The notes below the pieces were generated by a model that saw nothing but the letters and a program-made list of their open reading frames with translations, made no database searches and was not told the origin of the DNA. From Cyanidioschyzon merolae (Eukaryota), in NCBI GenBank assembly GCA_000091205.1, contig AP006487.2: a stretch of 64,000 bases of DNA; one strand, given 5' to 3'. Shown here one piece after another: positions 24,651 to 60,582 of this stretch (position 1 is the stretch's first letter; the number at the start of each line of letters is the position of its first letter). The position numbers and the translations under genes were made by a program.

Positions 24651-25587
24651 ATCGAATGGAAATGCGTGCGCTTGCGTGTGCATCGGACAACGCACTAGCC
24701 GAGACTTTCACCCGAAAGAATCCTGTGATTTCAGGTTACGGCACCGGGTACAGAAACGGAAAAGGGCATCGAGCGGAACCTAATATTCAAGTTGCTCCAA
24801 CGCGTCGTGCAGCGGAGGCAAGTCTGCATACGCAAACTGTCCGAGCACAAATCGACAACGAGACTCGATCATGTGTCGGGTGAAGCAGGCTCTGAACCGA
24901 CGCCCTCTGTGGTATGGCAAAGCTGTTCTGCCTTCGTGCTGCATCAGCACCAGTGGTGTACGTGCCATGGCGGACGCTCGCGATATGCACTCGGAGCAAT
25001 ATAGAGCGTAAACAATATGCGGTATCCCCGAAGTAAAGGATGGTTAGTGGTACTTGGAAGTAGATGGAACGATGGATGCTTCATCGTGCGCTGAGAACAA
25101 GCGCACTGTTGGGGATCGCTGGTCTGCGTGAACATTCCGTCAAACAAAAAGAAGCAAAATCGAGCGCGCTCGCACGAGTTTTGTGAATGCGCAAGTCAAC
25201 GCTATCCGGACCCCAGCGATACGTACCGGAAGTTACATGGGGTGACGTCTTTGCGAGCTCAGTGCTGTGGAGCTGGAACCGCAGCTTTAAGTATCTACAG
25301 GGTTGTGCCCAAAGGCACCAATGTCGGAATACTTTCAGCGTGTCATGAACCACCGTTTCCAGGTTTGGATTCAGAGCTACCGCTGCGATGCCGAATCTTC
25401 ATCTCGATGCATCGCAGCAGAGTTTTCCCGTTCGGTAAACTACGACATATGAGGTGTTTTCGCATGACCTGCCCAGTGACATTGCGATCGGTTTGTACGA
25501 AGGTTTGCGGCGGCGGCGCCCTGTCGAACACCAAGAGGCATTATTTGCAAAGGCTAATATCGGGCAGGTACCGGTGGACCCTATCTA

Positions 25588-26706: not shown

Positions 26707-27644
26707 GGTTCGCAGCAAAATAGCCGTTCAGTTCCACTCTGAACAAATACACGTTCTTGCTTTGTCAGCGCCAGCAGCGATGTGCACAGTGAAGATGTTT
26801 TAGCGTAATAGACATCTGGCTGCTTCGCAAGGCCTACCTTCCCGCACACATGATCGTCGATGCATGCGCATCGCGCGACTGTCATCGACACCAGAAGAGA
26901 GAATGACGACTAATAGACAATTCTGTACAAGATTGCTTTCCCGCTCTAGGGTGAGCGGTGGTACGTCGAAAAGTTTCCCATGTTTTCTATCGGATCCTTA
27001 TAGTGACAAGGTTTCGCGAGCAGGACAAAGCTGCCGGTCTTTCGCTCCGTGCCCCCCCGCTGGCGGGTGCTAGAGTGAGACCTCAGCTGCTTGTCCGTAA
27101 CAAAGCACATTCTGGGACTAGGAGCAGGCTGCTGCGTCTGGGCGTCGGTCTGGTTGTGGTGGACTCCCAGTGTAACGCTTCGCGCTGCCGCAGGTGGCAC
27201 GTCTGTCCGCAAAGCCTACAGACTACCAGAATAGTGACGAATCCCGATCCCGTTTGGGATCAGCCTCAGCTCGAGCCGACGCTTTCAGTTGTATGGCAAA
27301 GCCGTTCTGTCTCCGTTCTGCATCCGCCCGGCCGTATGGGCGCTATGGCGGGTGCAGTAAGGCAGGCGCTCGGCGCACGATAGAACGTTCGGAACGACCA
27401 TCTCATCCGAGAGGATGTAATGGAGCTTACAGGTAGAGAGCGGCATAATGGACGCTTTCCCGAAAGCGATTACCTATCGCGCAAGCTGATAGCCGTGGCC
27501 AAAGTAAACGTATTTTCAAAACAAATGAGTGGGACCGTCTATACGCCTCCAGCGCTTGTCCGTAGCGACAGAAGCGTGCCACCACGCTACCCAGGGCAGC
27601 GCCCGGAAAGCATGTGGTGGAAATATGGGAACACGTGACCACTG

Positions 27645-27960
27645 TCAAGTCACAGCTGAGACGGGCGCACCGGTGCAGTAGAGAACGAAGATGAAAATTG
27701 CCAACGAAGCGTAAATCCTGACGACAGTCTGCGCATTCAATGCGTCGACTATAGCTAGAAGGAGCGGAATCGGGACGTTTACGCTTCTAGCAAATCCATT
27801 GAATGATGTCAACAGAGCTCGAGGACCACTAAAGACCGGCATGATTAAAAGCGGGAACCAGACAGTGGAAAAAGAGAGCAGCCGCAGATAACGCTCACAG
27901 AGTCTGGTATTGATGACAGTGGGAACGACCCAAAACTCAGTGAACACGCCCGAGTGAGAA
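27645..27960 (-). repeat. Paralogous segment encoding a small hydrophobic peptide (…LLLAIVDALNAQTVVRIYASLAIFIFVLY…); paralog at 33300-33700
   Basis: About 250 nt are ~70% identical to 33300-33700. Minus-strand translations are conserved ('DALN.Q...ASLAIFIF') despite a frameshift in the second copy. Confidence 0.4.
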
Positions 27961-28209
27961 CACCCGTACCATTTTATTCTGATATAGAAGTAGAGCGATT
28001 GTCGTCAACTCCCGCGGCACGACGGGGCGAAATCGTCTTCCGTGTGCATCTGGGTCACGACTCGTCTCATCTTCTATGAACCTACCGTGCATCTTTTGCA
28101 TCACAAGTCGATGCATTAGCGAGGAAAATGTTTCGGCTGATACTAGCGTCGTCAATCCCGAGGCGACAGCGTAATGGGTGCCTGCCGTCCGCCGTTTCGG
28201 CCAATAGCC

Positions 28210-30228: not shown

Positions 30229-30549
30229 GCGTGCGAGTCGTCGACAGCTGCTGGCTGTCTCTTGCTGTGAATCTTACAAATTTAGTCTTTCCAGAAACAC
30301 GCTTTTGACCTCCCAATACGTAAAAACGGGACCAGGGCGAGCATGCACGGTTCGTATTCTGACAAGTCCGTAGAGCGCGCCCAACTCTAGCGAGTAACCC
30401 TGCAGTAGAGCTGTCAGAGAGAATGGCGGGCCCGCAACACCCTCCGGGGCACTCACTGCACTGCTGCGCAGTGTCGCGATCATGGTCAAGAATGGATTGC
30501 GATCCATGATGGTTAATGAATACCCGATCGTAGACGCTTTCCAGCCTTT

Positions 30550-33000
30550 TTGACCGACTGACTGCTATCAGCTTCAGTTTATCCAGGTATGCTTCGATCA
30601 TAAGAGGATGTTTCTCAAACATGGCTCGCGTCAGGTCCTCGGGTCTCTTCCTCAGCGCCACACATGGTTTGATGTTGACGGAGGCGTTGAAGTCTCGGTT
30701 AACGAACTCCTTGTGTGCATTGCTGCTGCTTGAACTGATCATTGCAAGGAGCGCTATACATCATGCTCTCTTCGCAACTACACTCTCGTCATCGTCCCGT
30801 CGCCCAAACACTTTTTCTCGTCCATATCCTCTCTCCTTCGTCGTCTTTTGCTCGTCTTCGCTCGATGATCTATGAGAAGAAGATTTTTCCATTTGTGTGT
30901 CGAACATGGTGATGGAGGCCCTCCAGGATCCCCGACTTCTATGTCCATACCTTTTCCTTCGATTTTTTATCTTTGAAAATGAACGCTCTTGTTTATGCGC
31001 ATAGTTGAGGACCTTCCCGAAGAAAGAGAGACTTGCGCAAGCTCGACGACGTGTGCCCCGGTGTGTCACCGTGTGCTGAACGCTTCAGCGATTCGCCCAG
31101 TAGAGCGATCATCACACGTTCCACATTAGAAAGGAGTGCTTTGATAAGGCCGCGCCACGGTGCGTACGGAGGAATGAAAAGCTGCTCTCACCCCCGCAGA
31201 ATTGGCACAGCTCGAACGCAACAGGAATGGTGAAATGCTACGTTTCCAATCGAAGGACATTGCCAGTCGTCACGGAAAAAGTCTTGAATGATTCGATAAA
31301 AAGAGTGCTGTTGTGTGAGCCTTCTCTATTTGTGAAACTGAGGAACCGAATGGAATCCAATGCAGCTGGAACAGATGATATCCTCGTTCTTTTCGAGCTC
31401 TATCGTACATACAACGCGCTCCTTCTCCTCGAATAACCGTGTACGTTCTGGTCGTTTTTCTCCGAGGAAAGTCTCATCTACTTGCAAAACAAATCAAAGT
31501 CGCTGTGCTTCATGCCATTCGCGAGGCTCCAGGAGTGCTGCAGTTTCGTTTTCGGTGGAAGATGGCCATAGTTGAACTGAGACTCTTTTTGGCGAGTGTA
31601 TCCCGGTGTTTTCAGGACCACACGAACAAGCTGTTGAGAAACAGAGAAGCCCATAGCGGCTACGATCTTCGCTTTTTGCTTTCCGTGAAAGTTGACCAAC
31701 GGGTTGTTCTCTACCATTGGCTGCAAGCTGTCTCTACGAGTACCGGTTTGTGGCGCGAAGTGCATCTACTTTCTTTCGATGCTGCTGAACCATCTGAGTA
31801 CTGTGGTATGACTGAGCTGAAGGAGCAATGCAGTCCTCTTTGCACTGTTCAGTAAAAAATATGTATACTTCAGGCAGTTCGTCTACCATCTTTCCAGCGC
31901 ATTGTATCGTGATTGCGACCGCCTAATATACACCGCAGCCGGGTGGATAAAGATTGGGTTAAAAGACTCTGGCTAAGGAGGGCCGACGTACCCGGTACCA
32001 ACCGGCGTAGGTCGTATGCCGGATGGTTGAACAAGTCACAGATGCTGAGCGATACAAGAGTACGCGGAAAATAAGATTCCAAGGGTTTTGTGAAATGTGG
32101 AAGCATCTCTATGACGAGAACTGACGCCATTTGCAACATTACTAGCATTCTTCGCGCGTTCGAATACGCTGGTTCTAGTCACGGGTACTGCACCAACACG
32201 AAAACCCGGTACGGTCCCGGGACGGAGCACTCCCAAATGGCACCGCTGTCGCTCGAGCGCGCCTCTGGCCATCGAGAGGCGAGGTCTCCATGACAAGCAC
32301 CTAAGGCCAGACCAGATTAAAATGGGATGCTGAACAGCTCGAGTTGCCTGTGCCTTTCGATTTCTTTTACAGACCCTTTTAGTAGTAGAGCCTCGAAAAT
32401 TCGAGGTATAGGAGTGAGGGTTTACGGACTCACAGCTAGTTTTCGGATTCTTGTTCGTCTAGTCTGAGCGGGTACTTTGGCGATTTAGAGTCGGAAATTG
32501 CTACAGAGTCAAGATGACTCACAATAGACTTGGACTAGTGCCAGAAAAGTAACCAATGACATCATCCAATTCACAAGTACAGACCACCACTGTTCTCTTC
32601 ATAATAGATGTAGTGTGCTCATATTATATATTCTTTGTGTTCTCGATCTTTCTCTTACAGAGCAACTGGCTAGCGTACGAATGAGGTCGGCTGGATTGAT
32701 GACGAAAAAACCTCGACGTCGTTTCTTGCTGAATTCTTCAAATGCTCGCGCCAAAAGTTTATGGGATGCGTCACTCCAAATCCTCGACTCTGTTCGGGAG
32801 AGAAATCCTCCTCGTTTCGTCGCCATTGACGAAGCTGAATTCGACGGCAACATGAGAAAACTCACGGGAGGTGCTCACAGAGACTTCGTTCTCTTCTATC
32901 TGCATGTAAAAGGGTCTTGGACTCGGATTTTAGTCATAGCAGTGATCGCTCCTGGAAGGGAATACCTCATCGCCCGGCAAGAAGGGACCGTAGCCGAATA
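30550..33000 (-). mobile_element. Fanzor/TnpB-like element copy 2 (degenerate, minus strand)
   Basis: 30660-30742 (minus) encodes 'HKEFVNRDFNASVNIKPCVALRKRPEDL...', homologous to copy 1 'MEFVNRDFHAAINIRKYAVLEKRPPEL...'. The upstream piece 30761-31069 has '...FDTQMEKSSSHRSSSEDEQKTTKER', comparable to copy 1 'QRVEMEK..LTEEQMERRAKVR'. The 3'-terminal nucleotides 30540-30600 are homologous to 13790-13850. Upper boundary (~33000) is approximate, and frames are broken throughout. Confidence 0.45.
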
Positions 33001-33299
33001 GAAAAACAAGTTGTCGACTTGTTCTCCAGGCTAGATCCTGCTTCCAGTACTAGCTTGGTCAAGAACAACCTGGCATTCTACAAATACTTTATGGACTGGG
33101 GGAGCGTGCGCTTGTGCACGCAAAGCACGGAGTACTTGCCAACGGCACCGCCCAGACGGAGGCCATCGTCTTTGGGTATGGGGTGCGACGCAGAAACGGA
33201 GGACACCATCAAATGCAGACATCTGCATCCGGCAGGGGTATCTGTCGAGCGATAAAGCAAGTGCCGGCGGGCAACGCTCGGAGGAGGAGATATTGAGGA

Positions 33300-33700
33300 C
33301 AAACTGTAACACCTGACCACAGGTAAGTGTCACCACGACAAAGGACACACCAGGGCTGTATGTGTAGAAGATGAAAATGGCAAGCGAAGCGAATATCGTA
33401 TCTTCCGCCTGTTCATTCAGAGCGTCAGTAACAGCGAAAAGCAATGACCTTGAGAATGACACTGGTGTCAACATGCCTCGAGTTTTGACAACCAAACGGG
33501 AGCGAAAATGCAAACTGGTGTATTTGAAGCCTCAGATGATAGAGAGGAACGCGCAGCAGTCCCCGATAATGCCAGCAAAGGCTGGGCTCGATGAATGTGG
33601 TCAGATATCCAAACTTTCGCATATGCGCCCCTGTCAGGGGACGTTCCATTTTATGCTGAACTGAGTGTGAGTACCAGCGCGTGGCAGCGTACCACGCAGC
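33300..33700 (-). repeat. Second copy of the hydrophobic-peptide paralogous segment (see 27645-27960)
   Basis: Minus ORF 33031-33513 contains 'LLFAVTDALNEQAEDTIFASLAIFIFYTY'. Nucleotide similarity to copy 1 continues into 33450-33700 in a different frame. Confidence 0.4.
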
Positions 33701-35937: not shown

Positions 35938-36125
35938 GTCTCCATTCCATACGGGAATACTCCACAGGGCATCCGCGAATGCTGCCCAGCATCCCTAGCT
36001 ATGCGGGATGCAGTTTGTCTCCATTCCATACGGGAATTCTCCACAGGGCATCCGCGAATGCTGCCCAGCATCCCTAGTTGTGCGGGATGCAGTTTGTCTC
36101 CATTCCATACGGGAATTCTAGACAC
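35938..36125. repeat. Tandem repeat, ~78-bp unit x ~2.4 with internal inverted repeats
   Basis: Unit 'tctccattccatacgggaat(a/t)ctccacagggcatccgcgaatgctgcccagcatccctag(c/t)t(a/g)tgcgggatgcagtttg' repeats head-to-tail. 'gcatccgc…gcgggatgc' forms a dyad. Confidence 0.6.
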
Positions 36126-42059: not shown

Positions 42060-42269
42060 TGCGGAGAAGCTTGTCTACTGGGTCTTGCTATAGCGGAACG
42101 CACTCATTCAGCGCTTTCCGTCCCTTGGTATCCGAAGCCGACCCAAGTGTCATCGTGTACGCGATGTTTCGTAAACCTCGCCGCGGTAGCCCGCGGATCA
42201 TGTACCGTTGCCTGGCCTCAGGATGGAGCGAGTTCGAAACGAAAACAGTTGCCTGCAAAAATATTAAAG

Positions 42270-42872
42270 AAAAAATGTGCCTGGTGGTGTCAGAATCCAA
42301 CAATTTTGGAACTAGAAAATAGTTTTCTGAAAAGATGTTGACAGAAAAAGTGCCTGGTGGTGTCAGAATCCAACAATTTTGAAACTAGAAAACAGTTGTC
42401 TGAAAAGATGTTGACAGAAAAAGTGCCTGGTGGTGTCAGAATCCAACAATTTTGGAACTAGAAAATAGTTTTCTGAAAAGATGTTGACAGAAAAAGTGCC
42501 TGGTGGTGTCAGAATCCAACAATTTTGAAACTAGAAAACAGTTGTCTGAAAAGATGTTGACAGCAAAAGTGCCTGGTGGTGTCAGAATCCAACAATTTTG
42601 AAACTAGAAAATAGTTTTCTGAAAAGATGTTGACAGAAAAAGTGCCTGGTGGTGTCAGAATCCAACAATTTTGAAACTAGAAAACAGTTGTCTGAAAAGA
42701 TGTTGACAGAAAAAGTGCCTGGTGGTGTCAGAATCCAACAATTTTGAAACTAGAAAACAGTTGTCTGAAAAGATGTTGACAGAAAAAGTGCCAGTAAGTG
42801 TCAGAATCCAACAATTTTGGAACTAGAAAATAGTTTTCTGAAAAGATGTTGACAGCAAAAGTGCCTGGTGGT
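42270..42872. repeat. Minisatellite: ~61-bp unit x ~10 in the SRalpha / DHRS12 intergenic region
   Basis: Unit '(g)aaaagatgttgacag(a/c)aaaagtgcctggtggtgtcagaatccaacaattttg(g/a)aactagaaaa(t/c)agtt(t/g)tct' repeats head-to-tail. Each unit holds small hairpins ('agaaaa-tag-ttttct'; near-palindrome 'ccaacaattttgg'). Confidence 0.75.
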
Positions 42873-43943
42873 TTGTTCACATCGATGGTGCCTTCACGAT
42901 TACAGGCTCACTCCGATGGACGTGGGCCTCTCGCACGCCAAAGCGAGTATAGTTGGCTCCGAGGCGTACCACGCGTTGAAAGGTTGGTATCGTGCTCAAA
43001 TGAGCGCCCTATTGAACCAGTCCGTCTCTCGTCTATGTCAGAAACGACCGTCCAATGAAGCATTCTAAGACCCCCAGGAGTTTTCTCTGTAAAATCAGCA
43101 CTCGGGAGCGGAATCCTTCGGTGCTGTATGCAGTCCTGACGTGCAGCGCCGCCGCCTGCGACAGATACTGCTGCTGCTGCTGCGCCAGTTTGCATATAAG
43201 CGCGAGGTATTCCACGGAAGGACTGCTTTTCGCTGTTCTTTACCTGTTGATTGTATCGCTGGTATGTGAAAGCGATGGTGCGGCTTCAAAAGCATCGGTG
43301 TGTCTACGGTTTTACGGGGGCAGGGGGTTCCACGCAGTCCAAGCGGCGCTCACAAACGGATCGGCGAGCGCTCTGGGTTCAGCAAGCTCGCGTTTGCTGT
43401 ACAAAAAGAACGCCACTACAAAGCGGTGATCGTATTTCGAGAGAAAGAGGAAGCACCTGGATTCGATGCCGCGACTCGTAACAGTGCACAAGCGTATTTT
43501 GACAATGAAATGAGCATCGTAGATGACAGCATCGACGATATTTCAACGCACCATGGGATTCAGTGTGCAATCGGCGTGCCAAGAGGAGCGCCTAACAAAA
43601 GCATGCATCCACGGAACGTTCGTCAATGGTTGCGAGCACGCGCATAGGCTGCTCATGTGCCCCGAAAGAAGGCACAGGGCTAGAACGTGCAACAGGTGCA
43701 GCGCGAATTTGCCGCTACCCCTCATTCGCAGGAAACGACAAGCGGTGTGTCGGTACCCTGTATCGCACAACGAATACACATTTCGGAAGCAGAACAGGCC
43801 AACATAGCGCCTCTGCTGATGCATCAACAGGATTTGGAGAAAGCAGCACGCTGGCCTTTGTCTCTGAGCCGGGGGCTCACATCCGTATACCCCACCTGTC
43901 GTGCATTCCGCATTAGACACGATCTTGATGCATAGGTGGTGCA

Positions 43944-47040: not shown

Positions 47041-48635
47041 AGATTCCGTGCTTCAATATGCGGAAGCAGGTATCTCATCGTATGCGCTTTAGAATGCAGG
47101 GCATCGGTGGACGTTCACCTCAGAACGATGTATGCTGGATATTTGTGCCAGGGGCCCGTTTTTGTGACTTTTTCTTGTTCTCACAGGTATTCAAGAAAAG
47201 TAATGTGTCCTGTGAATTGGGGAAAGGTCGCGTAAAGACTGTATGGCGACACTGGTGGATTGCGAACAGGTACCTGACCCCTACCGGTCAGTTGCTCCAC
47301 GATCAGCCGGTGCATGAATCACTCCTCGCGTTGTCCTTCTCATGAACGTGGTGCACCCAAAACGGAACTTGTAAGACTCCATCTTCACGACTCTGTTCTC
47401 ATCAATCCATTTCACACATAGGATCCCTACGAAATACTACCGAGAAAGCAGCAGGGTGCGAGGTTCATTTGAAGTTGATTTGAACGGTGATGAAGATACT
47501 CGGATGGACGCAGAAAAAAAGCACGCCTCGACACGGGTGCGTCGCGCGCGGAACTCGTCATCCTCGAGTCGAATGGAGTCGCGATGGATGATCAGAGGCG
47601 GGGCAGATGTTCATTTCATTCAATGGAACGTCATTGGCGACCAACGAGGGACCTGACTACGGGAACTCAAAGACGCGCAACTCGCTGTTTGTCAGTCAGA
47701 GACAAGCGAGCATGCCGACACTTTTAGCCTTAGCTGCGATGCATCCGGACGCTCGTCTATAAATCACGAAATGGGCATGATCGTTTAACAATCAATACCT
47801 CAGTCGAAGCAGTGTGTGGTTTCGCTTCCCAGATTTCTCTGTCCTGTTCTTGAGCAATGACGATTCGCAACGCTCAGAGGTGGTCGCGGAGGACCCAGCG
47901 GAGACTGGTAGCGAGCGGCTGTTCGGGCCAGCGAATGCTGTCTAGCTCAGTCCAGTCAAAGGCGTAGGCGCTGTCGTCAAAGCGCCTAGTGTTCAGCAGA
48001 GGCACGATTCGCATTCTGGGCATTGTTCAGTTCCTGGATAGCCTGGCGGTCGGAAGGCTCGGTCAGCGATTGCTCGTCCAGACGATAGTATAGACGGGGC
48101 GCTGGTTTGCTGGTAAGCGAGCTCGCCTCCGACCGTAGCATGTGACTCCTGAACGTGATGCCTTTCGGAGCTCGCCCTGCGGCAACGAAGGTCACCTGGT
48201 CGCCAAGCGCTGCTCATGGACATGCCTCTTAGGCTAGACAGCAACAAAAACCCAAGTCTGGGAATTTGCAGCGTGAGCGGACGCCACCAACGCAGTTGAG
48301 GAAGCGGGTACAGCTCTGCTACTGGGGTGCAGGGGAGAAAACATCTCGGACCCTGGTCATGGACAAGGACTCTTCCGCATGTTTCAGCAACATGGCCTTC
48401 AACGGTTGCCTACCAGTTCATCTTGGCCGGCTATGGGAGCATATCTATTTTTAGCATTCGACGGGTCCCGACACCGCACCGTCAGGCCGCAGGAAACGGC
48501 GTATTTCGGATCCACTGCTCCGAACACTGCAGAGTACGTTGCATCGTTGTCTGAAAAAATCGGAACGAGTGCACGGGCATAGCACTGGCATCCACACAAA
48601 AGTTTGGGTCTCTTCCCAGTGCTATCAACATCAGG

Positions 48636-49520
48636 TGTTGAGGGCGTTCTCGGCAACCGCACGCTTTCCCTCTCTCTCCGTCTCTCTCGCGCTCTCTCTC
48701 GCTCGCTCTGATCTCCGGCTTCAATGGCGCAGATGGCTCTATTCCATATCGAGTCGTTGTCAGCGGTCGAAGGACGTTGAGGGCAGCTCGTAACTGCCGA
48801 TCTCGCCGCACCCAGCTGTTGTCGACGCATTCAAACTGCAGGCGGACGCTGCGGACCAGGAAGCTCATTCGTAAACAGCCTCGACACGCCTTTTGCACCA
48901 TAGACGCTTGGCTACGGTCACGTGTTCCCATGCGTTCACCGCACACCCGCATCCAACTCCTCGTCTGGCTCCTGCATTGCCTCCGCCTCCTCCGCCTTCC
49001 AGCGTCATCCAGTGGTGCCTGAACGCATGCTTCATCGCTCGATACATGACGCTGACCAGTTACCGACGTCTACCACGAATGTCATGCCTCATTATCGCGC
49101 TCGATGGCATACCCGACGAATCACGAGCATCTTCGGGGTGATCCGCTCCGCTCGTTTCTTGTGAGATGCAAGCGCAAGCACGCGCTGTTGTATTCGATAG
49201 AGGATTTGCAAAGCGCGATCTTGTCAATGGTAAAACAAGTACAACAAGCGAAATCCAGGCTGGAAAAGGCGTCGAAAAACTTCCAATCAATCTATGCTCC
49301 ATTCGTGCAAAGCGGTACCGCGCTCCCCAATGAAGTTGATCCCTGCATCGCCTCCGGTCCGGGTATAAGACCATTTTCCATGCTAACAGAGGAGATGGGA
49401 GCCTCTGGCACCATATCCGCTCAAAAGCGTGCTGCTGCTGCTGCTGCTGCTGTAGAATGTTGTCTCGTCCATGCTCATAGAGAAAGACGATTTTCTGTAT
49501 CGAAAGGAATCGATTATTTG
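48636..49520 (+). repeat. Mosaic dispersed repeat family, copy 1 (modules A + A')
   Basis: 48636-49275 is ~99% identical to 54693-55330 (module A, with a CT-rich tract). 49276-49520 (A') is related to 58540-58800. An ORF (49104-49538) spans A/A' and is partly conserved at the amino-acid level in copy 3 ('PFSMLTEEMGASGT…AVEC' vs 'PFSMLNEAMGAAGT…AVEW'). Confidence 0.7.
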
Positions 49521-50704
49521 ACGCGCAAACTATACTGATTTTTCTGCATGAGCTCGTGAAAAAAGCCGTCAATGGATGAGGTCGAGCCCTTTTTCTCCGA
49601 AATCATAATACACAAAATGCTGCGCACACACGAGTTGCAACAGAAACATCCAATGTTAAGCAATATGTAGTTCGAGCATGCTACACGTAAGAAAAGGAGA
49701 AACGCGGATACTCGTACGTATCCATTGCATGATGATATCCACTACTGAACGAACCCTCGTTCTAGAGCGTCGCCAGCCATCCTGACTCAGATGACGTTAC
49801 AAAAAATCCTGCAGCAAAGCGTCCGCGGCGCGACTCCGAACAGGCTCCTGAGAATCCTAAAACTGCACATGAACACGTAAGCCCTTTTTCCTGCAGTTCG
49901 AATGTCGGCGTTGTACATCTTATAATGGTTCGAAAAATCGAAAGGCAGGCAGAAGCCAGCAGTTCTGTGCTCTATTTTTATTTGGCGCGGATGTCGAGCG
50001 CATGGCAACCAGCGACGCATGACGTCTGCCGCGGGATCGAGGACCCTATCCGAAGAACCCCAGTTGCGCAGATCTAGTGGGCAGTTAGGAGCAAACGACC
50101 GCCGTTCCCTTCTAGATTCCTCCATTCTTTCAAAGCTGTCCAGACGAGCCTAGCCGATGCCAAGAGAGGCTTGAGCGATCCACAACAACCATGCGGATAC
50201 CGCGGACGCCTTGCGAGGCCGTGACGGTGCCGCTACGCCTCAGCGGACTTCGACTAGAGACGAGGTTCGTTCAACAGGGAGATTCGGAGCTCGTCGTCGG
50301 CTTCGGACGCCAACTGGCATTACTGACAGCTTCGCTGCATGCAGCAGCGCGGACGGCCACACGAGAGGAACGCAGTGACCACAGCAAAACGGAGGCGCTG
50401 AGCACAGTCCGCCCCCGTTCACAGTCGCAGGAACATGTGTACAACGCTGTGGAGCGGCGCGAGCGACGCAGCGGCACGCACCACTGCGCAAGTACGCTGA
50501 CCACTGTACAGACTGATGGGTACACTTCACAAAAACTCTCTGCATCGAATGTAGCGTCGTCCAAGTCTCGAAAATACTACCAAATACCGCCTCTATCCGA
50601 TGGAAAACCAGGAGTGGTGTTGTTGGTACCCAGAGGACGCTGGAGCGGAGCATGCCACGCTTCCTCGGGTAGCGGGAGCCCCGTGTCACGCCCCTAGCAT
50701 ATGC

Positions 50705-50870
50705 AATATCCATGCATGAATGCTTGGATGCACGGATGCATGAATGCTTGGATGCACGGATGCTTGGATGCTTGGATGCACGGATGCTTGCATGCACGGA
50801 TGCACGGATGCTTGGATGCACGGATGCTTGGATGCACGGATGCTTGCATGCACGGATGCATCACCGATCA
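50705..50870. repeat. 8-bp microsatellite (WYGGATGC)n, ~20 units, ~310 bp upstream of the dynamin start
   Basis: 'ttggatgcacggatgcttggatgcttggatgcacggatgcttgcatgcacggatgc...' The period of 8 is not a multiple of 3, so the ORFs reading MHECLDARM... across it are artefacts. Confidence 0.75.
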
Positions 50871-51180
50871 TCAAAAAAAACCACCACAGCACCAGAAGCT
50901 AAGGCATCGATGAAATCGGACACGCTGGCACTGGACCTGCGCGCCATCGGAGCGCGCTGCTGTCCGTGGGCGCCACCGGCGCCATGCGCGCGTGCACGGA
51001 TCGCAGTGTGCCTTCGAAAGCGTTCGATGCAGGGCAGCGATCGCGCTGGTGTCCGCTTTAATGCTGTGTCCAGAATGTCCGAAACGGACGGTACGCCACC
51101 GTTCCCGGTGCTGCACGAAACGTTGACAACGAGGCTTGGCGCTCTGGGTACGCGTTGCTCGGGCGAACGCGACAGGCTTC

Positions 51181-53487
51181 ATGGAGCGCCTAATACCTAT
51201 CGTAAACAAACTTCAAGACCTCTTCGCCGAGACTGGGTTAGACAGCCCAATCGACCTGCCACAGATTATGGTGGTGGGCGCCCAGTCCTCGGGAAAGTCG
51301 AGCGTATTGGAGAACGTTGTAGGAGAGTCCATTTTTCCGCGTGGTACGGGTATTGTAACGCGCCGCCCCATCGTTGTTCAGCTTTACTGCACAGCGAGGG
51401 AGCGGTTGAATCAGTCGGGAGCCCCGGATAACATGTTTAACGAGGACGGAAGCTATGTGCTGTCGGATGGAGCGCCAACGGACCCCCGGTCGATTCCGCC
51501 GGGCGCGGAGAACCAGGCATATGCAGAGTTTCTGCACAAGCCCGGTGTGCGCTTCTACAACTTTGACGACGTGCGCGCAGAAATAGAACGAGAGACAGAT
51601 CGCGTTACTGGAAAAAACAAGGGAATAAGCCCGAAAGCGATCAACCTGCGGGTGTACTCACCGCACGTGGTGAACCTCACCGTCGTCGACCTGCCCGGAC
51701 TCACCAAGGTCCCGGTCGGAGACCAGCCGTCGGATATCGAGCGTCTCATTCGCGCTATGGTTTTGTCGTACATAGAGCGTCCCAACGCGATTATATTGGC
51801 TGTGCACCCGGCTACAATGGATCTCGCTACGAGCGATGCGTTGCAGATAGCGCGCCAGGCGGACCCAGAGGGGCGACGCACGCTGGGTGTCATCACCAAG
51901 CTCGACCTGATGGACAAAGGAACGGATGCCATGGAGATGCTGACCGGGAAGGTTATCCCTCTGAAACTGGGTTACATTGGGGTAATCTGTCGTGGGCCCG
52001 CAGACCTGCGAGCTGGTAAATCTATTCAACAGGCGCGAGAGGATGAAATCCGTTTCTTCCGCTCCCATCCGGTGTACAGACGTCTGCTGCCACAGCTGGG
52101 AACGAATACGTTAGCACGAACACTGTCAACGCTTCTTATGAAGCACATTCGTGACACGCTGCCGAGCATACGCCAGAAAATGTCGCAGCAGCTAGCAGAG
52201 TGGCGCAAGGAATTGCAGACGCTGGGACCTGCGTTTGAGGGCGCTGACGATCTCGGTGGCGCCCTCCTCAATGTTATCAATAGATACTCGTCGGAGTTTG
52301 CAAAATCGCTGGAGGGCAACTCACAGCAGACGGTGAATACCCAGGAGCTTTATGGCGGTGCGCGCATCAATTACATCTTCAACGACATTTACGCGAAGGA
52401 GCTGCAGTCGATGAATGCGTTCGAAGGCCTCACTCGCGAGGATATCCGCACAGCAATCCGCAACGCGACAGGTCATCGCAGCCCGCTTTTCGTACCAGAG
52501 CTCGCTTTTGAGCTGCTCGTCAAGAAACAAATTACCCACTTTGTCCCGCCGGCCTACTCCTGCGTTGACTTGGTCTACGACGAACTCGTGCGTCTCGCGC
52601 TGAACTGTGAAACAGAGTTGCTGCAACGCTATGAGAATCTGCGCTCCGAAATCTTGGCTTGCGCGCAAAACCTGTTACGCGAGTTGAAACAACCGTGTCT
52701 GGAGATGGTTCAAAACCTCATCGCCATGGAGACATCCTACATTTCCGTGAATCACAAGGATTTCATCGGCGGCAACAAAGCAATGAGTCAGCTTGTGCGC
52801 GCTCGCATGGAAGAGGAAGAGCGCCGAACTAGATCCGCGAAAGCTGCGAACAGTACGGACAACGCCGCGAATAGTGCACCGAAAGAGAGCAACGCAAACG
52901 ACAATCGCATTCTTCAACCTCGCCGGCGAAACCAGGACGAAAATGCGAAGAAGAACGACGATGCCCGTCGCAAGGATGACAAGTCGCCGAACAAGACCGA
53001 TGCGTCGAACGCCGAGAAGGACGCGCGCTCTGACCGGAACCCGCGCGGTGACCCAACGATGGACAACTTTTTCAATGAGGCGGACGAGGACGAGGAAGAC
53101 GGCAACGAACGCCGGAACCGAGGCTTACACACGCTCCCGTCGGTGCCGGAACACCTCAAAGCAGGCGAAGTATCGAGCGACCGCGATCGGGATGATATCG
53201 AGCTCATCCAGACGCTTCTTGCGAGTTACTTCGATGTTGTGCGGGTCAATATGATGGATATGGTACCAAAGGCAATCATGAGCTTCCTGGTGCTCCGCGC
53301 CCGCGACCGGATGCAGTCGCGTCTGGTCGCTGATCTCTACAAACCCGAACGTATGAGCGAACTGCTCAACGAGTCAAGCGACGTAGCGGAGCGACGTGCA
53401 ACCGCAAAACGAATGGTGGACCTTCTCCAGCGCGGTATGGCGGTGATTAACGAGGTTCGAGACGTTCACGTCAAAGAGGAGATTTAG
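51181..53487 (+). CDS. Dynamin-related protein (Drp1/Dnm1-like large GTPase)
   Basis: 'MERLIPIVNKLQDLFAETGLDSPIDLPQIMVVGAQSSGKSSVLENVVGESIFPRGTGIVTRRPIVVQL' is a dynamin G domain, followed by a middle domain, a Lys/Asp-rich variable insert and a GED ('...DIELIQTLLASYFDVVRVNMMDMVPKAIMSFLV'). Track start 51136 is TTG; ATG at 51181. Stop is TAG at 53485-53487. Confidence 0.9.
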   Translation: MERLIPIVNKLQDLFAETGLDSPIDLPQIMVVGAQSSGKSSVLENVVGESIFPRGTGIVTRRPIVVQLYCTARERLNQSGAPDNMFNEDGSYVLSDGAPTDPRSIPPGAENQAYAEFLHKPGVRFYNFDDVRAEIERETDRVTGKNKGISPKAINLRVYSPHVVNLTVVDLPGLTKVPVGDQPSDIERLIRAMVLSYIERPNAIILAVHPATMDLATSDALQIARQADPEGRRTLGVITKLDLMDKGTDAMEMLTGKVIPLKLGYIGVICRGPADLRAGKSIQQAREDEIRFFRSHPVYRRLLPQLGTNTLARTLSTLLMKHIRDTLPSIRQKMSQQLAEWRKELQTLGPAFEGADDLGGALLNVINRYSSEFAKSLEGNSQQTVNTQELYGGARINYIFNDIYAKELQSMNAFEGLTREDIRTAIRNATGHRSPLFVPELAFELLVKKQITHFVPPAYSCVDLVYDELVRLALNCETELLQRYENLRSEILACAQNLLRELKQPCLEMVQNLIAMETSYISVNHKDFIGGNKAMSQLVRARMEEEERRTRSAKAANSTDNAANSAPKESNANDNRILQPRRRNQDENAKKNDDARRKDDKSPNKTDASNAEKDARSDRNPRGDPTMDNFFNEADEDEEDGNERRNRGLHTLPSVPEHLKAGEVSSDRDRDDIELIQTLLASYFDVVRVNMMDMVPKAIMSFLVLRARDRMQSRLVADLYKPERMSELLNESSDVAERRATAKRMVDLLQRGMAVINEVRDVHVKEEI

Positions 53488-54692
53488 TGCGCGTTCGTCA
53501 CATATTCGAACGATTGTAAACCAGTTTTGCCTCAGGCATCCGGGAGCAGGATCTCAGCACAGCGTTCTGGACGATGCTGGTCGCGTTTTGCGAAAAGCGT
53601 ATCCGCTGCAGCGAACGACTGCGAACGGCTCATGGATGCGTACGGTCATGCACGGGGGGCGCCCACAACGACACCCGCTCAGTGGTTTCGGGAAGGTGTT
53701 CTTGTTTTTTTCGTCTCCGAGTTTTGCGTTCGCACCGGGGCTGTCGACGCCACTGGGAGCATCCACGGCAGACTCGGCGCACGATGGAACATGAGAAACG
53801 CCCAGTATCTCCGAAGGGACCAGGGTTGATGGAATTCGGCAGTATGCCATGGAATGATGGACGCTTTCTCGGTCGCTTATAGCAAGCGTGCTACCCTCTT
53901 TCGTATATAGATTCGGTGGATCGAAAAGGCAGCTGCTCCTTGCACGCGTTCTACGATGACCGCGACGCTGGCAGGGCAGGTAACGCTCCCCGTATGCGTT
54001 CTAGCGGGTTGGCGTCGAGTGCACAGCGGCCCAGCGCTCGCCATCGTTATCCGAACGATATAGACGGGGTTCCAGACCGTACCCAGCGCTGAAGCAGATA
54101 CATGTGCGCCCCAGATATCGCCGCATCTCTGCAGCAACACCGACAAGCACCGCGTTGGCATGAGCGCTGGCCACCATCGGTAGTTGAGCACGCCCGGCAA
54201 TGCCGTGCACGCTGCTCCGGGCCGGAGCAAACCACGTGTTGTGTTTCGGACGCAAGACTCCTGGTCGATTGCTGCAAGTACGCTGATTCGATGCGTGTTT
54301 GCATGAGTTCAGTCGAGCGATATGGACAGGGGCGAGCTGCTGTGCCTTGTGCTGAATGCGGAGCATGCCCATCGCCTGGAACGGTGAATGTCGTTGCCGG
54401 TATGGATACCAGCGAGCTACCGTAACTGAGGATACCGGGAGCTCAGATCCATATAAGCCAAATCAGGTACATAGTGGTGTTGGTGGATGATATCAGCGGT
54501 AGCAGCGTCTTCTTAGAAAACAGGTATCTGCTGAAACAACAAGCGTTCTCTTGAACACGGCCGCACCGCCTGACGAGCGCTTGTCTCATTGCCTCAATAC
54601 ACGTGTTCGCGTAAAATGCAGCATGATGACTGACAATGGCGTATATGCTCAAAATTCGGCAGCTTTTCGAACGATTATGAGTACCATCATTG

Positions 54693-55830
54693 GTGGGCGT
54701 TATCGGCAACCGCACGCTTTCCCTCTCTCTCCGTCTCTCTCGCGCGCTCTCTCTCTCGCTCGCTCTGATCTCCGGCTTCAATGGCGCAGATGGCTCTATT
54801 CCATATCGAGTCGTTGTCAGCGGTCGAAGGACGTTGAGGGCAGCTCGTAACTGCCGATTTCGCCGCACCCAGCTGTTGTCGACGCATTCAAACTGCAGGC
54901 GGACGCTGCGGACCAGGAAGCTCATTCGTAAACAGCCTCGACACGCCTTTTGCACCGTAGACGCTTGGCTACGGTCACGTGTTCCCATGCGTTCACCGCA
55001 CACCCGCATCCAACTCCTCGTCTGGCTCCTGCGTTGCCTCCGCCTCCTCCGCCTTCCAGCGTCATCCAGTGGTGCCTGAACGCATGCTTCATCGCTCGAT
55101 ACATGACGCTGACCAGTTACCGACGTCTACCACGAATGTCATGCTTCATTATCGCGCTCGATGGCATACCCGACGAATCACGAGCATCTTCGGGGTGATC
55201 CGCTCCGCTCGTTTCTTGTGAGATGCAAGCGCAAGCACGCGCTGTTGTATTCGATAGAGGATTTGCAAAGCGCGATCTTGTCAATGGTAAAACAAGTACA
55301 ACAAGCGAAATCCAGGCTGGAAAAGGCGTAGAAAAACGTTGACTGCAATCGATGATTCGCATTGCCGAGTTCAGCGCTATCTCAGCATTGCTATGTGATC
55401 AAGTCATCCAGGGAAGATCTCGGGTGTTTGCTCTCGTCCATCCAGCGGCGCGAATCGCTGTGCCCACAAATCCCCTTGAACCTGATTGGTAGAAAACCTG
55501 ATGCATGCAAAGTCTGCGCATACTCTATCTGTTTGACACGGAAAAGCATGCAGATTGCTACCCAGGACCTGGACCATGAAACCGGTTGGTTTACGAATCC
55601 TCGTTCGAGGGCGTCGCCATGCATCGGTCTTGCGGTGCCGCAACGATTTCCAGTGGCACAGCGCCCAGAGCGCCACGCCCAGGAGACAAGCGAGAATCCC
55701 AAGAATTCGGACGAATCTGTAAGACCCCATTGCTACACTTCGGTTATCGAAGCTGTACACCTGAACAGCATTCCGATAAAAATCTCAAGCCAGGACTAGA
55801 GCCAGCAGTCCAGTGTCCCATGTTCATCGG
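54693..55830 (+). repeat. Mosaic dispersed repeat family, copy 2 (modules A + B)
   Basis: 54693-55330 matches copy 1 module A with ~6 differences. 55335-55830 is ~97% identical to 58803-59300 (module B). A' is absent. A c>a change creates a TAG in the frame that is open in copy 1. Confidence 0.7.
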
Positions 55831-56085
55831 ACATAGGTATCGAAACAGACAATGTTCACTTCAAGGGTATCCTGATGTCTGCCCCTGCAATGCCTGAAAA
55901 ATCTCACTTGACGACACATCGACACGTCATGCACCATTCGAATGGTGGCGAATGACCAAAACGCGGCTGCAGAGCATCGCGCTCCATCCGGTCGCATCGC
56001 CGATACGCGCTGCGAATCCAGTACCGAAGCGTCCGAAACATGCCGAGGTAGACTCGTCATCGCTTGCGTCGACAACAAGGAACGC

Positions 56086-56952
56086 TCAGATCCGAAGGTC
56101 TCGGAGTCGGTCTAATCGTTGCATGAGATCGAGCTCCTCGGCCATGGCGCTCTGTGGCCCCGGATACGATCGCTCTTGCAGGCGATCCGCGAAAACATCC
56201 GTCCGAGCCGCAATCTCTGCACCATTCTCGCTATCAAAGAGATCCATGGAAGGTTCCCATTGTAACTCATAGTGCTCGGCTATGCGCTTCATTTCCCGTA
56301 CAATAACCTCTCTGGGGGGAATCCTCCATTCCAATAACCCAATCAGATTCAAATTTACACCGCTCGCATGCGGACGCTCAAAAATGAACAACGCGAAATC
56401 GGGGCCCCCAAACAGCCTCACGAATATGTGACCGACTTCATCGAGCTCCGTCACTGTGCCGGTTAGCGGCCCAGTGGCGGCGTCAGGAGGGGCAATGCGC
56501 GTTCCCGCGAACGAGTAACAGGCATAGATGATACTGTTGACGGCTTCTCGAATCTCGAGCGGAATTGGCACGACACTTTTCCGGGGATCTCGCTCATAAA
56601 TCCGAAAACATTGCTCAATCAAGTTGAAGCGGGCCTGCAAAAGCTCCGTGAAGAGCAAGAGCAAGTGCAGCGCCTCCTCGAGCTCCAGCTGGTGGTAGAG
56701 GTGCTCCACACGAACGCGCGCCAGTTCGGCACGCCCTGCTTGCCGCGCACCGGCCGATGCGAACGCAGCACCGTTGAGCTCGCTCTCGGGTGCCAGGAGT
56801 GCAGCAACTTCCCTTTCGGCAGTGATTATGCTTTGACGCAACCGGTTTTTGCGCAGAGCTAGGCGCGCGCGTGCCCCTTGCAAGAGTAAACGCGCCCGTG
56901 CAGGTGAAAACTGGCGAGACCGGTTCTCAAAAAGCCGCGTTATTCGCTTCAT
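56086..56952 (-). CDS. IST1: IST1 homolog (ESCRT-III-like regulator of Vps4)
   Basis: 'RAELARVRVEHLYHQLELEEALHLLLLFTELLQARFNLIEQ...EAVNSIIYACYSF' is colinear with the IST1 N-domain ('ARIRVEHIIREDYLVEAMEILELYCDLLLARFGLIQ'). The C-terminal 'EELDLMQRLDRLRDLRI' is MIM-like. ATG at 56950-56952. The track ORF extends to 57417 through antisense CAG repeats (CCRCCR…), which I take as non-coding. Confidence 0.7.
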   Translation of the reverse strand: MKRITRLFENRSRQFSPARARLLLQGARARLALRKNRLRQSIITAEREVAALLAPESELNGAAFASAGARQAGRAELARVRVEHLYHQLELEEALHLLLLFTELLQARFNLIEQCFRIYERDPRKSVVPIPLEIREAVNSIIYACYSFAGTRIAPPDAATGPLTGTVTELDEVGHIFVRLFGGPDFALFIFERPHASGVNLNLIGLLEWRIPPREVIVREMKRIAEHYELQWEPSMDLFDSENGAEIAARTDVFADRLQERSYPGPQSAMAEELDLMQRLDRLRDLRI

Positions 56953-57599
56953 GTCGTACAAGTCCGGGCACAGCGCGCGTTCGGTCGAGGGCGTCGTCAA
57001 GGCCGGCTTTCGCGGAAAGTAACCTGCGAGGTGTCCCGCCCGTCCCAGACGTTTAACGCACAAGGCGTCTGGAACGCTCAACGGAATACCAGTAAAGTCG
57101 AGTGCGACTCGGCGGAGACCCACGAGACTCGGTTCCAACCCTGGTAGCCGCGGAAGCGTAGTGCAGCGTGCGTTCCGGCGCGCGAAGGCCAGGTTATCGG
57201 CGCACCGTGTCCACTGAGTGTACAGGACAGCACCGCACCGTTTCATGAACGATCGATCGATTGATCGGCAGCAGCGGCAGCAGCAGCAGCGGCAGCAGCG
57301 GCAGCAGCGGCACGTCCCTGGAAGTCGTCGATTGCTGCGGCGGATTGCGCGGGCGCGATGCATTCGCGGTGGCGTTTTTCTCCAGTTGATGGTGTTCCAG
57401 CTGCAGATGCGTGCCACTGCATGTGCTTTTTTGCGATCTATAGCAGACGCGGTCGAATTGGATTCACTTGAAGGATTTAAAACATCTAGGAGAATGGTAT
57501 GGGCGTAAAAGTGGAGGATTTTGGAGCGTCGCCATCGCTCGGTTCTGCAAAGAAACGGGAACGATCCTCCTCTGACTGACGATCGTGCGACGAAGACGA

Positions 57600-57930
57600 A
57601 GAAGAACAGGGCAGAGTAGGCGAGAAAGTGTGTTTGCCTAACGAGATCATCACGGAACTGTAGTGGCAGAGAGGACGCAAGATCGAGGAATCATCGCAGT
57701 GGTGCGTTCAGCTTGCTGCGGAGCACATAGAGAACTCGTGAAGCGAGACTTCAACGCCGCCGTCGATACCAGAAAAGGTGCGGTACCGCAGACGAGAGAC
57801 GCGAGCGATGTGACGCGGGCGAAGGTTGCGGGCCAGCCTCACAGCATCGGCGTGTACGGGGTTAAGCTGAAGCCGATAGCAGGCGGCTGGTCAAAACAAG
57901 CAGGGAGGCGTCTGAGCGTAGGAATGTAAA
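57600..57930 (+). mobile_element. Fanzor/TnpB-like relic 3 (C-terminal fragment only)
   Basis: ORF 57663-57929 has 'SACCGAHRELVKRDFNAAVDTRK' (Zn-finger remnant plus RuvC-III motif). The 3'-terminal nucleotides 'ggctggtcaaaacaagcagggaggcgtctgagcgt' are homologous to copy 1 'ggccggtccaaaaacacggggtggcgtctgcacgt'. Confidence 0.4.
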
Positions 57931-58059
57931 TATCATTCACGGTCGAGGGACATTTTTTGTTTTCCTGACCCTCTCCAGGATACAATGAAGCATGTTGCCT
58001 GACCAGGGCGTAAACGCTCAAGTTCGGGCTCTTTTTTAACGATCTTGAATACTTGCGTT

Positions 58060-59300
58060 CGCGGGCCTGTCTGTAACCGCTTCCTTTGCCTGTCTCTCGG
58101 ATTTCCGGCTTTCAATATGCGAGTCCTTTGTTTTCCTGTGGATCCGTTGTAATCAAAAGAAGGACGTTTATGGCAGTTTGAAGGCCCCGATTCTGAAGTT
58201 CCAGGCTGTTCTCGACACCGCTAATGCACAACTGGAGGTTGCGATCAACGCTTTCGTTGTGTTCTTGCGATCTTCTTTGGATAGAACTGCGGTGTGCTCG
58301 TCGCAGCGGTGAGAGTTGCCTGTCATCAGATGTTCGCATGCGCCCAACAAATTCCCTCGTCCGAGCGATTCCCCTCTGTCGTGGAAACGCTTGCTTCAGC
58401 GCTCGATGCATTGCCTCAACGGATACGGAAAGCGCGACTCGATGCTTTGCTGCGGTGAAGCCTCTGGGCGATGCCCGCGGCGAGTACCCTCGTTGCGGCA
58501 CGGCGCACGCGCACGCTGTTCCATAAGGCAGAGAATTTCGTGGAATGCACAATGTCGTCCATGATGAACCAAGTATCCGACGGGAAGTGAAGGCCTGGGT
58601 AGACTTGGAAAAATTTCGGTTCCTGTACGCTACCTCCATGCGAAGCAGTCGATATGATGAATCAGGTCAGAGTCCGATGCCCTTTTCCATGCTAAATGAA
58701 GCGATGGGAGCCGCTGGTACCGCATCAAAAGAGAGCTATGATGGTGATGGTGATGCTGTAGAATGGCGTCTTGTCGATGAACACATATAGGGGGAAAAAG
58801 GCTGGCCTTTCGGACGCAATCGATGATTCGCATTGCCGAGTTCAGCGCTATCTCAGCATTGCTATGTGATCAAGTCATCCAGGGAAGATCTCGGGTGTAT
58901 GCTCTCGTCCATCCAGCGGCGCGAATCGCTGTACCCACAAATCCTCTTCAACCTGATTGGTAGAAAACCTGATGCATGCAAAGTCTGCGCATACCCTGTC
59001 TGTTTGACACGGAAAAGCATGCAGATTGCTACCCAGGACCTGGACCATGAAACCGGTTGGTTTACGAAACCTCGTTCGAGGGCGTCGCCATGCATCGGTC
59101 TTGCGGTGCCGCAACGATTTCCAGTGGCACAGCGCCCAGAGCGCCACGCCCAGGAGACAAGCGAGAATCCCAAGAATTCGGACGAATCCGTAAGACCCCA
59201 TTGCTACACTTCGGTTATCGAAGCTGTACACCTGAACAGCATTCCGATAAAAATGTCAAGCCAGGACTAGAGCCAGCAGTCCAGTGTCCCGTGTTCATTC
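58060..59300 (+). repeat. Mosaic dispersed repeat family, copy 3 (diverged A + A' + near-identical B)
   Basis: 58060-58800 is ~75% similar to module A/A' of copy 1. 58803-59300 is ~97% identical to 55335-55830. It starts ~130 bp downstream of Fanzor relic 3. Confidence 0.6.
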
Positions 59301-60582
59301 TGACCCAGCGGTAGTACCTGATGCGTCGATTATTCGCGTCATGCGGTCGAGAATTCTCGAGCGACCACTCAGCCATGCAGCTGCGAGCGCGCTGACATAG
59401 CGTAGGCGCTCAGAAGCGGCGTCCTTGAATAACCTATCGGATGGTGCGCCCGCTGAACACCGTGCTCTATCAACGCGGTGCTGGGAGCGTTCAGACTACC
59501 CCAGGAACATCCAGTGTCGATATCGGAGCTCAATGCGGAGCTCGAATACGCGACTGGCGCTGGCCGTGTACTAGGAATATAACCCACTCACAATGAGCAT
59601 AAACGTATCATCTCAACCTACAAGAGAAAGAGACTATCTGTCAAGCAGCTTTTCGAAACTCCCCTCGAGTTTCTCAGACACGACGAGCAGCACGGCGGCA
59701 CGATGCAGCAGCATTAGATAGCAGACGTGCAGCTGGAGCACGGCGTCGTACCGAACCCGGCGCCGCACTGCGCACTTTCCAGCACCTCCGAGCCAACACC
59801 GTATGCTGACCCAAGGATACGAGAACGCTGCTCCATCTCCTTGCAGCGTCCGGAGCGGCGCTACATACGTCATGCTGGGCGATCGTCGCAGGCAAGCGGT
59901 ACGCCATAGGATCGTACGAACCAAGCATGATCTCTTCCAAAAGAAAGTATCGTTCGATCTGATCAATAGTGCTAGCTGGTAGAGCTTGGATGGATGGTGC
60001 GGTATCATACGCACGACTCTAGATACCGATATGCATCGCGTTATCGATCATTCTCTGTGGGCAAAGGCAACGATCCGTCGATGAAAAGATATCATCGGTC
60101 GCATCCTCGAGCCGACGCCCGCTGTGTGTGGCACGACAACGCCGCTCTGTCTCTGTGAAGCGACCGCATCGGCGCTATAGGTGCCATTGCTGTCGCTTTC
60201 GGGAGGCACTAGGCACACACGATAGGACGCACGAAACGACCAGTATATTCGAGAAGAAGTATAGGTCATGTAACTTGGAAGTAGGGCGTCTGATAGATAC
60301 CTCACCGCGCACTGAAAAAAAAAGAAAGAAGAGCAAAATGCGCATAATCGGAGAACGCTGGCCGAACTTCAAGTTCTGTGAATGAAGAAATAAAAATCGA
60401 ACGCTGTCGAGGCGCCAGAGCGGCAATCCCCACAGGCGCGACGCAGACTCGCGTCTGCACGAGTACGACGGCCCAACAGCGCTAGTCTGCCGCTGTGTGC
60501 GTGATTGGGCACTACGAGCCCTGGCACCACATGTCACAGGCCCTGATAGAGAGACGGTACAGTCGTCTCACTAGAGCGATAG

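Follow-up and report, generated by a model that had tools for sequence, protein, structure and literature searches.

A probable internally deleted Fanzor1 element of the CMe-1 family and its inverted-repeat neighbour in Cyanidioschyzon merolae

The 64,000-nucleotide stretch of Cyanidioschyzon merolae contig AP006487.2 analysed here (the window) holds at about 57374-57968 what is very probably a dead, non-autonomous member of the CMe-1 family of Fanzor1 elements, lying beside a separate inverted-repeat element. This Fanzor copy is referred to as copy 3. Aside from its tendency to lie next to a particular neighbour, it is an ordinary decayed copy of an already published Fanzor1 family. We propose that its ancestor was a full-length element from an older sub-lineage that has a distinct type of 3' tail. 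This ancestor would have lost about 1.77 kb of its open reading frame (ORF), the loss running between two short similar stretches (microhomology) and sparing on one side the left end and the start codon with about 50 codons, on the other the last ~90 codons with the 3' tail. The resulting derivative of about 600 nt would then have spread to many sites in the genome with the help of factors acting in trans, as its common junction suggests, and copy 3 would since have decayed, its frames broken and its RNA structure signal gone. The neighbour, here called the A/B unit, would be a different and very abundant non-coding element, one of the two having inserted at or beside the other.

The Fanzor1 protein CMe-1 of C. 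merolae was described by Bao and Jurka (2013, Mob DNA 4:12, PMC3627910). It is carried by the element CMe-1A, for which a consensus of 3169 bp and about 150 copies at roughly 80% identity to it are given; inverted repeats are absent and a target duplication is not recognisable (PMC3627910). The first 635 bp of CMe-1A are the element TE-N2_CMe, CMe-1A thus being TE-N2_CMe plus a core element (PMC3627910). Comparison with the consensus protein and DNA from the supplement of that paper identified the window family as CMe-1/CMe-1A. Copy 1 (11243-13920, plus strand) is a near full-length element of the CMe-1A type with an in-frame stop at 13530; its positions 11271-13895 are 82-85% identical to CMe-1A consensus 671-3145. 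A search with copy 1 returned 241 relatives, all metagenomic and, among those listed, 70-80% identical. About 700 nt upstream of copy 1, a solo 83-nt fragment (10447-10529, plus strand) corresponds to the CMe-1A-type 3' terminus (consensus 3086-3169). The 3' terminus of copy 1 itself is followed after only 54 nt by the start codon of a SUMO gene (13917-13974; gene at 13974-14273). Just before its RuvC-I motif, copy 1 carries three tandem 75-nt coding repeats (12716-12940). Their number varies in the family, with about six in the relative P0003 and one in the published consensus, and they resemble an acidic linker of variable length within the Fanzor1 protein.

The assignment of this family to Fanzor1 was assessed with deep profiles. 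A profile search of 1.84 billion representative proteins recovered 1425 relatives, and a profile of CMe-1 and 78 distant relatives matched the Fanzor1 structures of Parasitella parasitica (9CF0, E=6.8e-21), Spizellomyces punctatus (8GKH, E=1.8e-14) and Guillardia theta (9CER, E=8e-7), the match running across the RuvC domain with DEFRT and NRD.NAA. Single-sequence and shallow-profile searches of Pfam and the PDB gave no match to the family, so that the deep profile was needed; the Pfam model PF07282 scored E=0.51 on the family consensus and E=0.0023 on the relative P0135. An AlphaFold2 prediction from a shallow alignment of 40 sequences was uninformative (pLDDT 41.6). Across 79 family sequences, the split RuvC triad has D431 (GADPG) and E603 (DEFRT) invariant and D672 (NRDFNAA) nearly invariant, and G433 is also invariant. 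The family zinc ribbon keeps HHELGC...C and, unlike that of the solved Fanzor1 nucleases, has no second cysteine pair, the region reading STTSDGKK.

The initial annotation had described positions 57600-57930 as a C-terminal Fanzor remnant homologous to two other copies in the window. The kinship is well founded, and an ORF of 88 amino acids is indeed present at 57663-57929 on the plus strand, whereas the homology extends further, over about 57374-57968. This ORF codes for the final ~85 residues of a Fanzor1 protein. By BLASTP it aligned over 84 residues with residues 646-728 of the 734 of the published CMe-1 consensus (43% identity, E=4e-17), and by tblastn family proteins matched window positions 57672-57923 (E~4e-13, 42-44% identity). 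The C-terminal remnant accordingly occupies 57664-57929 (plus strand), equivalent to CMe-1 residues 646-734 and the stop codon. At the DNA level, a profile of the family 3' end matched 57774-57922 (E=2.8e-21); a Pfam search with the 88-residue ORF gave no match. The RuvC-III motif was rightly recognised in the initial annotation: RDFNAA lies at 57744-57761 (plus strand), and its aspartate is the nearly invariant D672 of the family. The nucleotides GGTCAAAACAAGCAGGGAGGCGTCTG (57891-57913), likewise noted there as homologous to the 3' ends of the other copies, are conserved and common to all copies. They are coding, GGTCAAAA...GGCGTCTG specifying the conserved GGRSKK-GRRL stretch of the family, which reads GGWSKQAGRRL in copy 3. 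The claim that two zinc-finger cysteines are kept did not survive the alignment. The CC of SACCGAH in copy 3 falls on the S-D of the family STTSDGKK, and cysteines occur there in no family member; because these positions are serine and aspartate in the family, the two residues are not retained zinc-finger cysteines. Since the RuvC domain of copy 3 comprises the RuvC-III segment only, with RuvC-I and RuvC-II lying within the deleted 1.77 kb, copy 3 cannot be a nuclease.

Copy 3 as a whole (57374-57968, plus strand) was delimited by aligning its two halves to CMe-1A. Positions 57374-57614 match consensus 790-1019 and positions 57664-57919 match 2833-3088; therefore, about 1.77 kb is missing. Copy 3 is thus a short form, an internally deleted, non-autonomous and decayed CMe-1-type Fanzor1 element. 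What it retains, all on the plus strand, is the left end with the start codon and about 50 N-terminal codons and, beyond the deletion, the C-terminal codons with a 3' tail of about 40 nt. The left end with the 5' untranslated region (57374-57498; CMe-1A 790-905) was aligned with full-length, short and long forms. All three forms have in common a left-end motif at CMe-1A position ~790, which reads GTTTTTCTCCAGTTGATGGTGTTCCA in copy 3 and GTCTTTCA.CTCAATTTTGTTCCAC in the family consensus. The alignment places the start-codon remnant and N-terminal codons at 57499-57614, where copy 3 has MGVKVEDFGASPSLGSAKKRE for the MEKEVEDPGGPVSPAAGKKRK of CMe-1 and a stop after 26 codons. A Lys/Glu/Arg-rich remnant (57615-57663), identified by alignment and direct reading, leads up to the deletion junction, at which CMe-1A ~1066 is joined to ~2832. 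The microhomology at this junction is between GTGGTGAAAG on the N-terminal side and ATGGAAAGG on the C-terminal side. The non-coding tail (57930-57968) is of the old-lineage type by its match to the tail consensus and ends in ...GGGACATTTTTTGTTTTCCTGA(C). The N-terminal remnant is out of frame with the C-terminal one, stops occur in every frame, and no continuous ORF is left. A reading of GMGVKVEDFGAS in copy 3 as a remnant of RuvC-II was rejected after alignment with full-length copies, which assigned it to the start codon and N-terminus.

The same deletion junction was found in at least 20 non-redundant copies at unrelated loci in about 1 Mb of related DNA, copy 2 of the window included; since these loci were drawn from several metagenomes of related strains or species, some of the copies may not be independent insertions but orthologues that have diverged. 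When 18 short copies were aligned with their flanks, the unit recurred and the flanks were unrelated. The 5' part of the short copies, as judged by alignment with full-length copies, consists of the family left end, the 5' untranslated region, the start codon and the first ~50 codons. Copy 2 (30511-31968, minus strand) is, by alignment, a long form of the same deletion lineage, with the junction of copy 3 and an insertion of about 900 nt in the 5' region. The DNA of copies 2 and 3 is 66% identical over 447 nt, the similarity reaching upstream beyond the protein homology, and copies of the lineage are generally 65-72% identical to one another. They have in common the tail consensus ...GGGACATTTTTCGTTTCACTGA(C), which is found also in copies without a downstream A/B unit and in full-length elements (locus L075, 7540-10400; locus L055, 2388-4790). 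The younger, CMe-1A-type lineage has a different and sharply defined tail that ends in ...CGAACGGCGTT. Because a unique junction is common to at least 20 dispersed copies, we infer that these copies stem from a single deletion derivative, whose amplification in trans would date far back. In the short copies, the boundary of the left end is fuzzy, and two of them carry extra upstream sequence typical of full-length elements. No target-site duplication was recognisable in the old Fanzor copies, the exact termini of which, like those of the A/B unit, are not definable, and no empty orthologous site was found among the related-strain contigs (<4 kb), which were looked up via the IST1-like and dynamin proteins.

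A deletion derivative of this kind bears on how transposase-less Fanzor1 elements move. Spread to at least 20 sites with about 275 nt of 5' and about 330 nt of 3' sequence would delimit the sequences required in cis and would indicate mobilisation in trans. As an observation on the young lineage (loci L005-L084), the DNA that follows ...CGAACGGCGTT is often T/G-rich (TGTTGTTGG, GGTGGTG, TGGTG), and the base before the Fanzor left end is usually A (TA or CA). The T/G-rich 3' flank and the preceding A are possible candidates for insertion-site or target-adjacent motifs.

The element downstream of copy 3 was characterised with iterated DNA profiles. The repeats A, A' and B belong to a single unit of about 1.35 kb, in which profile A 1-825 is followed by B 1-472. 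Six such units lie in the window and about 60 in the ~1 Mb of fetched loci, 37 of which are full length at 1.31-1.43 kb. In the window, the unit next to copy 3 (R3; 57966-59314, plus strand) is about 1.35 kb long and non-coding, with nhmmer matches to A' at 57976-58794 and to B at 58822-59292 (overall span 57976-59292) and terminal inverted repeats at ~57966-57991 and ~59289-59314. Profile matches also placed R1 at 48548-49976 (plus strand) and R2, which has an internal deletion, at 54609-55821 (plus strand); the A part of R2 is 98% identical to R1 and its B part 98% identical to R3. A complete unit at 32321-33659 (minus strand), absent from the list in the initial annotation, lies 353 nt upstream of copy 2 in the same orientation, and two partial units were detected by the profiles on the minus strand, at 27983-27526 (A 2-470) and 24833-23767 (from A 408). 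The consensus ends of the unit are CTACACCCATGTCAGAATAAAATGGAAC at the 5' side and, as reverse complement, CTACACCCGTGTCAGATAAAAATGGAAC at the 3' side. They form terminal inverted repeats of about 29 bp, in which about 27 of the 29 consensus positions match, and the two ends of 29 units are described by one and the same profile. No conserved ORF was found in the A/B unit. From the recurring inverted-repeat ends and this lack of a conserved ORF, the unit is, as far as its sequence tells, a non-autonomous inverted-repeat DNA transposon. In the unit consensus, TA stands beside CACCC...GGGTG on both sides, and individual copies are too decayed to confirm a duplication; these flanks suggest, but do not prove, an element of the Tc1/mariner type.

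Copy 3 and R3 lie end to end. The initial annotation had put the start of the repeat at 58060, about 130 bp downstream of the ORF; however, the tail of copy 3 ends in ...TTTTCCTGA(C) at 57968/9 and the 5' inverted repeat of R3, TGACCCTCTCCAGGATACAATGAAGC, runs from ~57966, abutting the Fanzor 3' end with no DNA between. The co-occurrence of Fanzor 3' ends and units was therefore examined over the ~1 Mb of related loci, using non-redundant 3' ends and scoring a same-strand unit fragment that started within 110 nt of the end of the 3' profile. A same-orientation unit was found within 110 nt at 6 of the 31 old-lineage ends and at none of the 56 ends of the young, full-length-type lineage (Fisher P~0.0015); the density of units alone would lead one to expect ~0.2. 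Units lying up to 3.2 kb from old-lineage elements were co-oriented with the Fanzor copy 13:2 (binomial P~0.007), against 11:17 for the young lineage. The adjacency count and the co-orientation thus establish an association for the old lineage, so that the co-occurrence envisaged in the initial annotation holds for this lineage and fails for the young one; a complete lack of association elsewhere was not observed. The Fanzor end meets the unit at seven different positions (A4, A5, A25, A139, A240, A684 and B50). At locus L077, a long-form Fanzor is cleanly nested in a unit, with A at 14099-15034, the Fanzor at 15040-16505 and B from its position 50 at 16552. This is the only clean nested insertion with both unit halves, one case among about 87. 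Four of the units that meet a Fanzor end have lost their 5' part at the junction, and the missing half does not lie upstream. Most Fanzor copies have no unit beside them, and most units have no Fanzor. A layout of unit, gap and long form recurs at copy 2 of the window and at loci L070 and L075, where the gap sequences are unrelated and the loci are not orthologous. Two further resemblances were considered. The 3' end of the old Fanzor lineage and the 3' inverted repeat of the unit both have the pattern CATTTTT...CTGAC, but homology was rejected, as a profile of the unit inverted repeat scored ~0 on 30 Fanzor tails. The Fanzor left end and the unit inverted repeat also have the 8-mer GTGTTCCA in common; by a rough estimate this is compatible with chance, and it is regarded only as a lead.

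Several other explanations of copy 3 were weighed against that of a dispersed deletion derivative. The resemblance to Fanzor might be fortuitous, a short motif (RDFNAA) in an arbitrary ORF, and the 88-residue ORF indeed finds no match in Pfam; with E=4e-17 over 84 residues to CMe-1, a DNA profile match at E=2.8e-21 and additional homology on the 5' side, the probability of this is practically negligible. Old transposon copies commonly erode, and copy 3 is highly diverged, as would be expected if a full-length element at this locus had been reduced to a stump in situ by local deletions, with no mobile derivative involved. Such an origin is very improbable given that the 5' part, the junction and the 3' part recur together in at least 20 copies with unrelated flanks, copy 2 among them, and that the junction has one specific microhomology. 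A retained function is rated lower still. TnpB/Fanzor elements encode their guide-RNA scaffold at the 3' end, and the 3' end of copy 3 might still specify such an omega-RNA scaffold, or a small protein used in trans. In the younger lineage, the 95-nt tails are structured (mean folding z=-1.32, P=5e-8; flanks -0.08) and by eye have a terminal hairpin with covarying variants, as expected if they encode a guide-RNA scaffold or hairpins for end recognition. Against these tails as a positive control, the 69-nt stretch of copy 3 that comprises the ORF end and the tail (57903-57971) folded no better than its shuffles (z=-0.6), and 30 old-lineage tails had a mean z of -0.34 (P=0.056; flanking controls -0.11). 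RNAalifold on these 30 tails gave no consensus structure, and the window yielded no match in Rfam and no tRNA. Nor is the ORF conserved: copy 2 has an in-frame stop, and copy 3 has a GTG start preceded by stops. The copies of the lineage are only 65-72% identical.

The neighbourhood of copy 3 gave rise to another alternative. In the initial annotation, the A and B modules were thought possibly to be cargo, or the outer part, of a larger Fanzor-bearing transposon that would move as one. The enrichment of same-orientation adjacency in the old lineage, the 13:2 co-orientation and the long-form Fanzor lying cleanly inside the unit at L077 are all in keeping with such a composite, and the family is known to form propagating composites at its 5' side, CMe-1A itself being one (TE-N2_CMe plus core element; PMC3627910). 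Nevertheless, we consider a composite improbable. The position of the junction differs in every case, no unit adjoins 25 of the 31 old-lineage ends or any of the 56 young-lineage, full-length-type ends, and most of the ~60 units have no Fanzor neighbour. In addition, the unit has inverted repeats of its own, whose profile does not match the Fanzor ends, and the gaps in the layout of unit, gap and long form are not conserved among its non-orthologous loci. On this evidence, copy 3 and the A/B unit are separate elements; they adjoin because one was inserted at the other or beside it, rather than as parts of a single transposon. This reading does not account for the excess of co-oriented adjacency or for the one-sided truncations: simple neighbouring insertions alone do not explain the 6 of 31, the 13:2 or the four one-sided cases.

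A functional link between the old Fanzor1 lineage and the A/B element, either homing into or next to units or the use of one common transposition machinery, is accordingly put forward as a tentative and rather unlikely addition to the separate-element reading. In its homing form, RNA-guided cleavage of the multi-copy A/B target would be followed by copying from a Fanzor-bearing unit. If true, either form would give an excess of co-oriented, end-to-end pairs together with one-sided truncation of units. Co-oriented adjacency to an abundant inverted-repeat element thus hints at a target preference or a common machinery.

Copy 3 resembles CMe-1A in its protein family, in having neither terminal inverted repeats nor a transposase gene, and in belonging to a set of many old copies. 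It differs in being of an older sub-lineage (43% identical to the consensus in amino acids and ~68% in DNA), in its 3' tail, in the absence of 1.77 kb of the ORF and in the absence of the 789 bp at the 5' end of the consensus, which include TE-N2_CMe. TE-N2_CMe (635 bp) is similarly a short, non-coding element related to part of CMe-1A. However, it corresponds to consensus 1-635 and the short form to 790-1066 joined to 2832-end, and the two therefore do not overlap. In the retention of the ends, the loss of the interior at microhomology and the presumed amplification in trans, the short form recalls Ds, which derives from Ac, deleted P elements and the bacterial PATEs, which derive from IS200/IS605; the parent of copy 3, however, encodes Fanzor1 only, and no target-site duplication is definable. 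Compared with the solved Fanzor1 nucleases, copy 3 keeps RuvC-III only. The A/B unit is similar to long, Stowaway-like non-autonomous elements of the Tc1/mariner type in its ~29-bp inverted repeats, TA flanks and lack of an ORF, but no transposase has been identified for it and a TA duplication is not demonstrable copy by copy. In Pythium, Fanzor1 is carried inside Mariner elements (PUl-1; PMC3627910 supplement), whereas here the Fanzor is not normally inside the A/B unit (1 case of ~87).

The units of the window also bear signs of exchange. Patches of 98% identity connect co-oriented neighbours (48642-49280 with 54695-55337, and 55345-55827 with 58816-59298), against a family background of 65-75% identity between typical A/B copies. 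Such patches point to recent exchange, by gene conversion or unequal recombination, among co-oriented neighbours lying within about 10 kb, and this exchange would account for the mosaic look of the A/B unit. Fragments resembling TE-N2_CMe were observed on the minus strand at 27518-26932, 25081-24873, 53871-53764 and 60285-60104. Two of them abut truncated A/B units (27983-27526 and 24833), with a one-sided truncation like that at the Fanzor junctions. About half of the intergenic regions in 23767-33659 and 48548-59314 contain an A/B unit or a fragment of one. The C. merolae genome is usually described as repeat-poor, and this density is striking against that description. A published survey reported no MITEs in C. 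merolae (PMC3964958).

Other features of the window were noted in passing. The window is intron-poor and has about 54% G+C, and its genome is found in hot-spring metagenomes at 98-99% identity. An ORF for the arsenite methyltransferase ArsM at 25588-26718 (minus strand) is by eye about 90% identical to the crystallised CmArsM of Cyanidioschyzon sp. 5508. The sequence thus indicates a red alga of the Cyanidioschyzon type as host. Positions 50687-50884 hold a run of 8-bp units (GGATGCAY) that overlaps long ORFs on both strands, and these ORFs are probably spurious. An intergenic array at 42127-43002 consists of about 12 tandem copies of a 73-bp unit with up to 99% identity, and at 35938-36095 a 79-bp unit is present in two tandem copies that are 96% identical.
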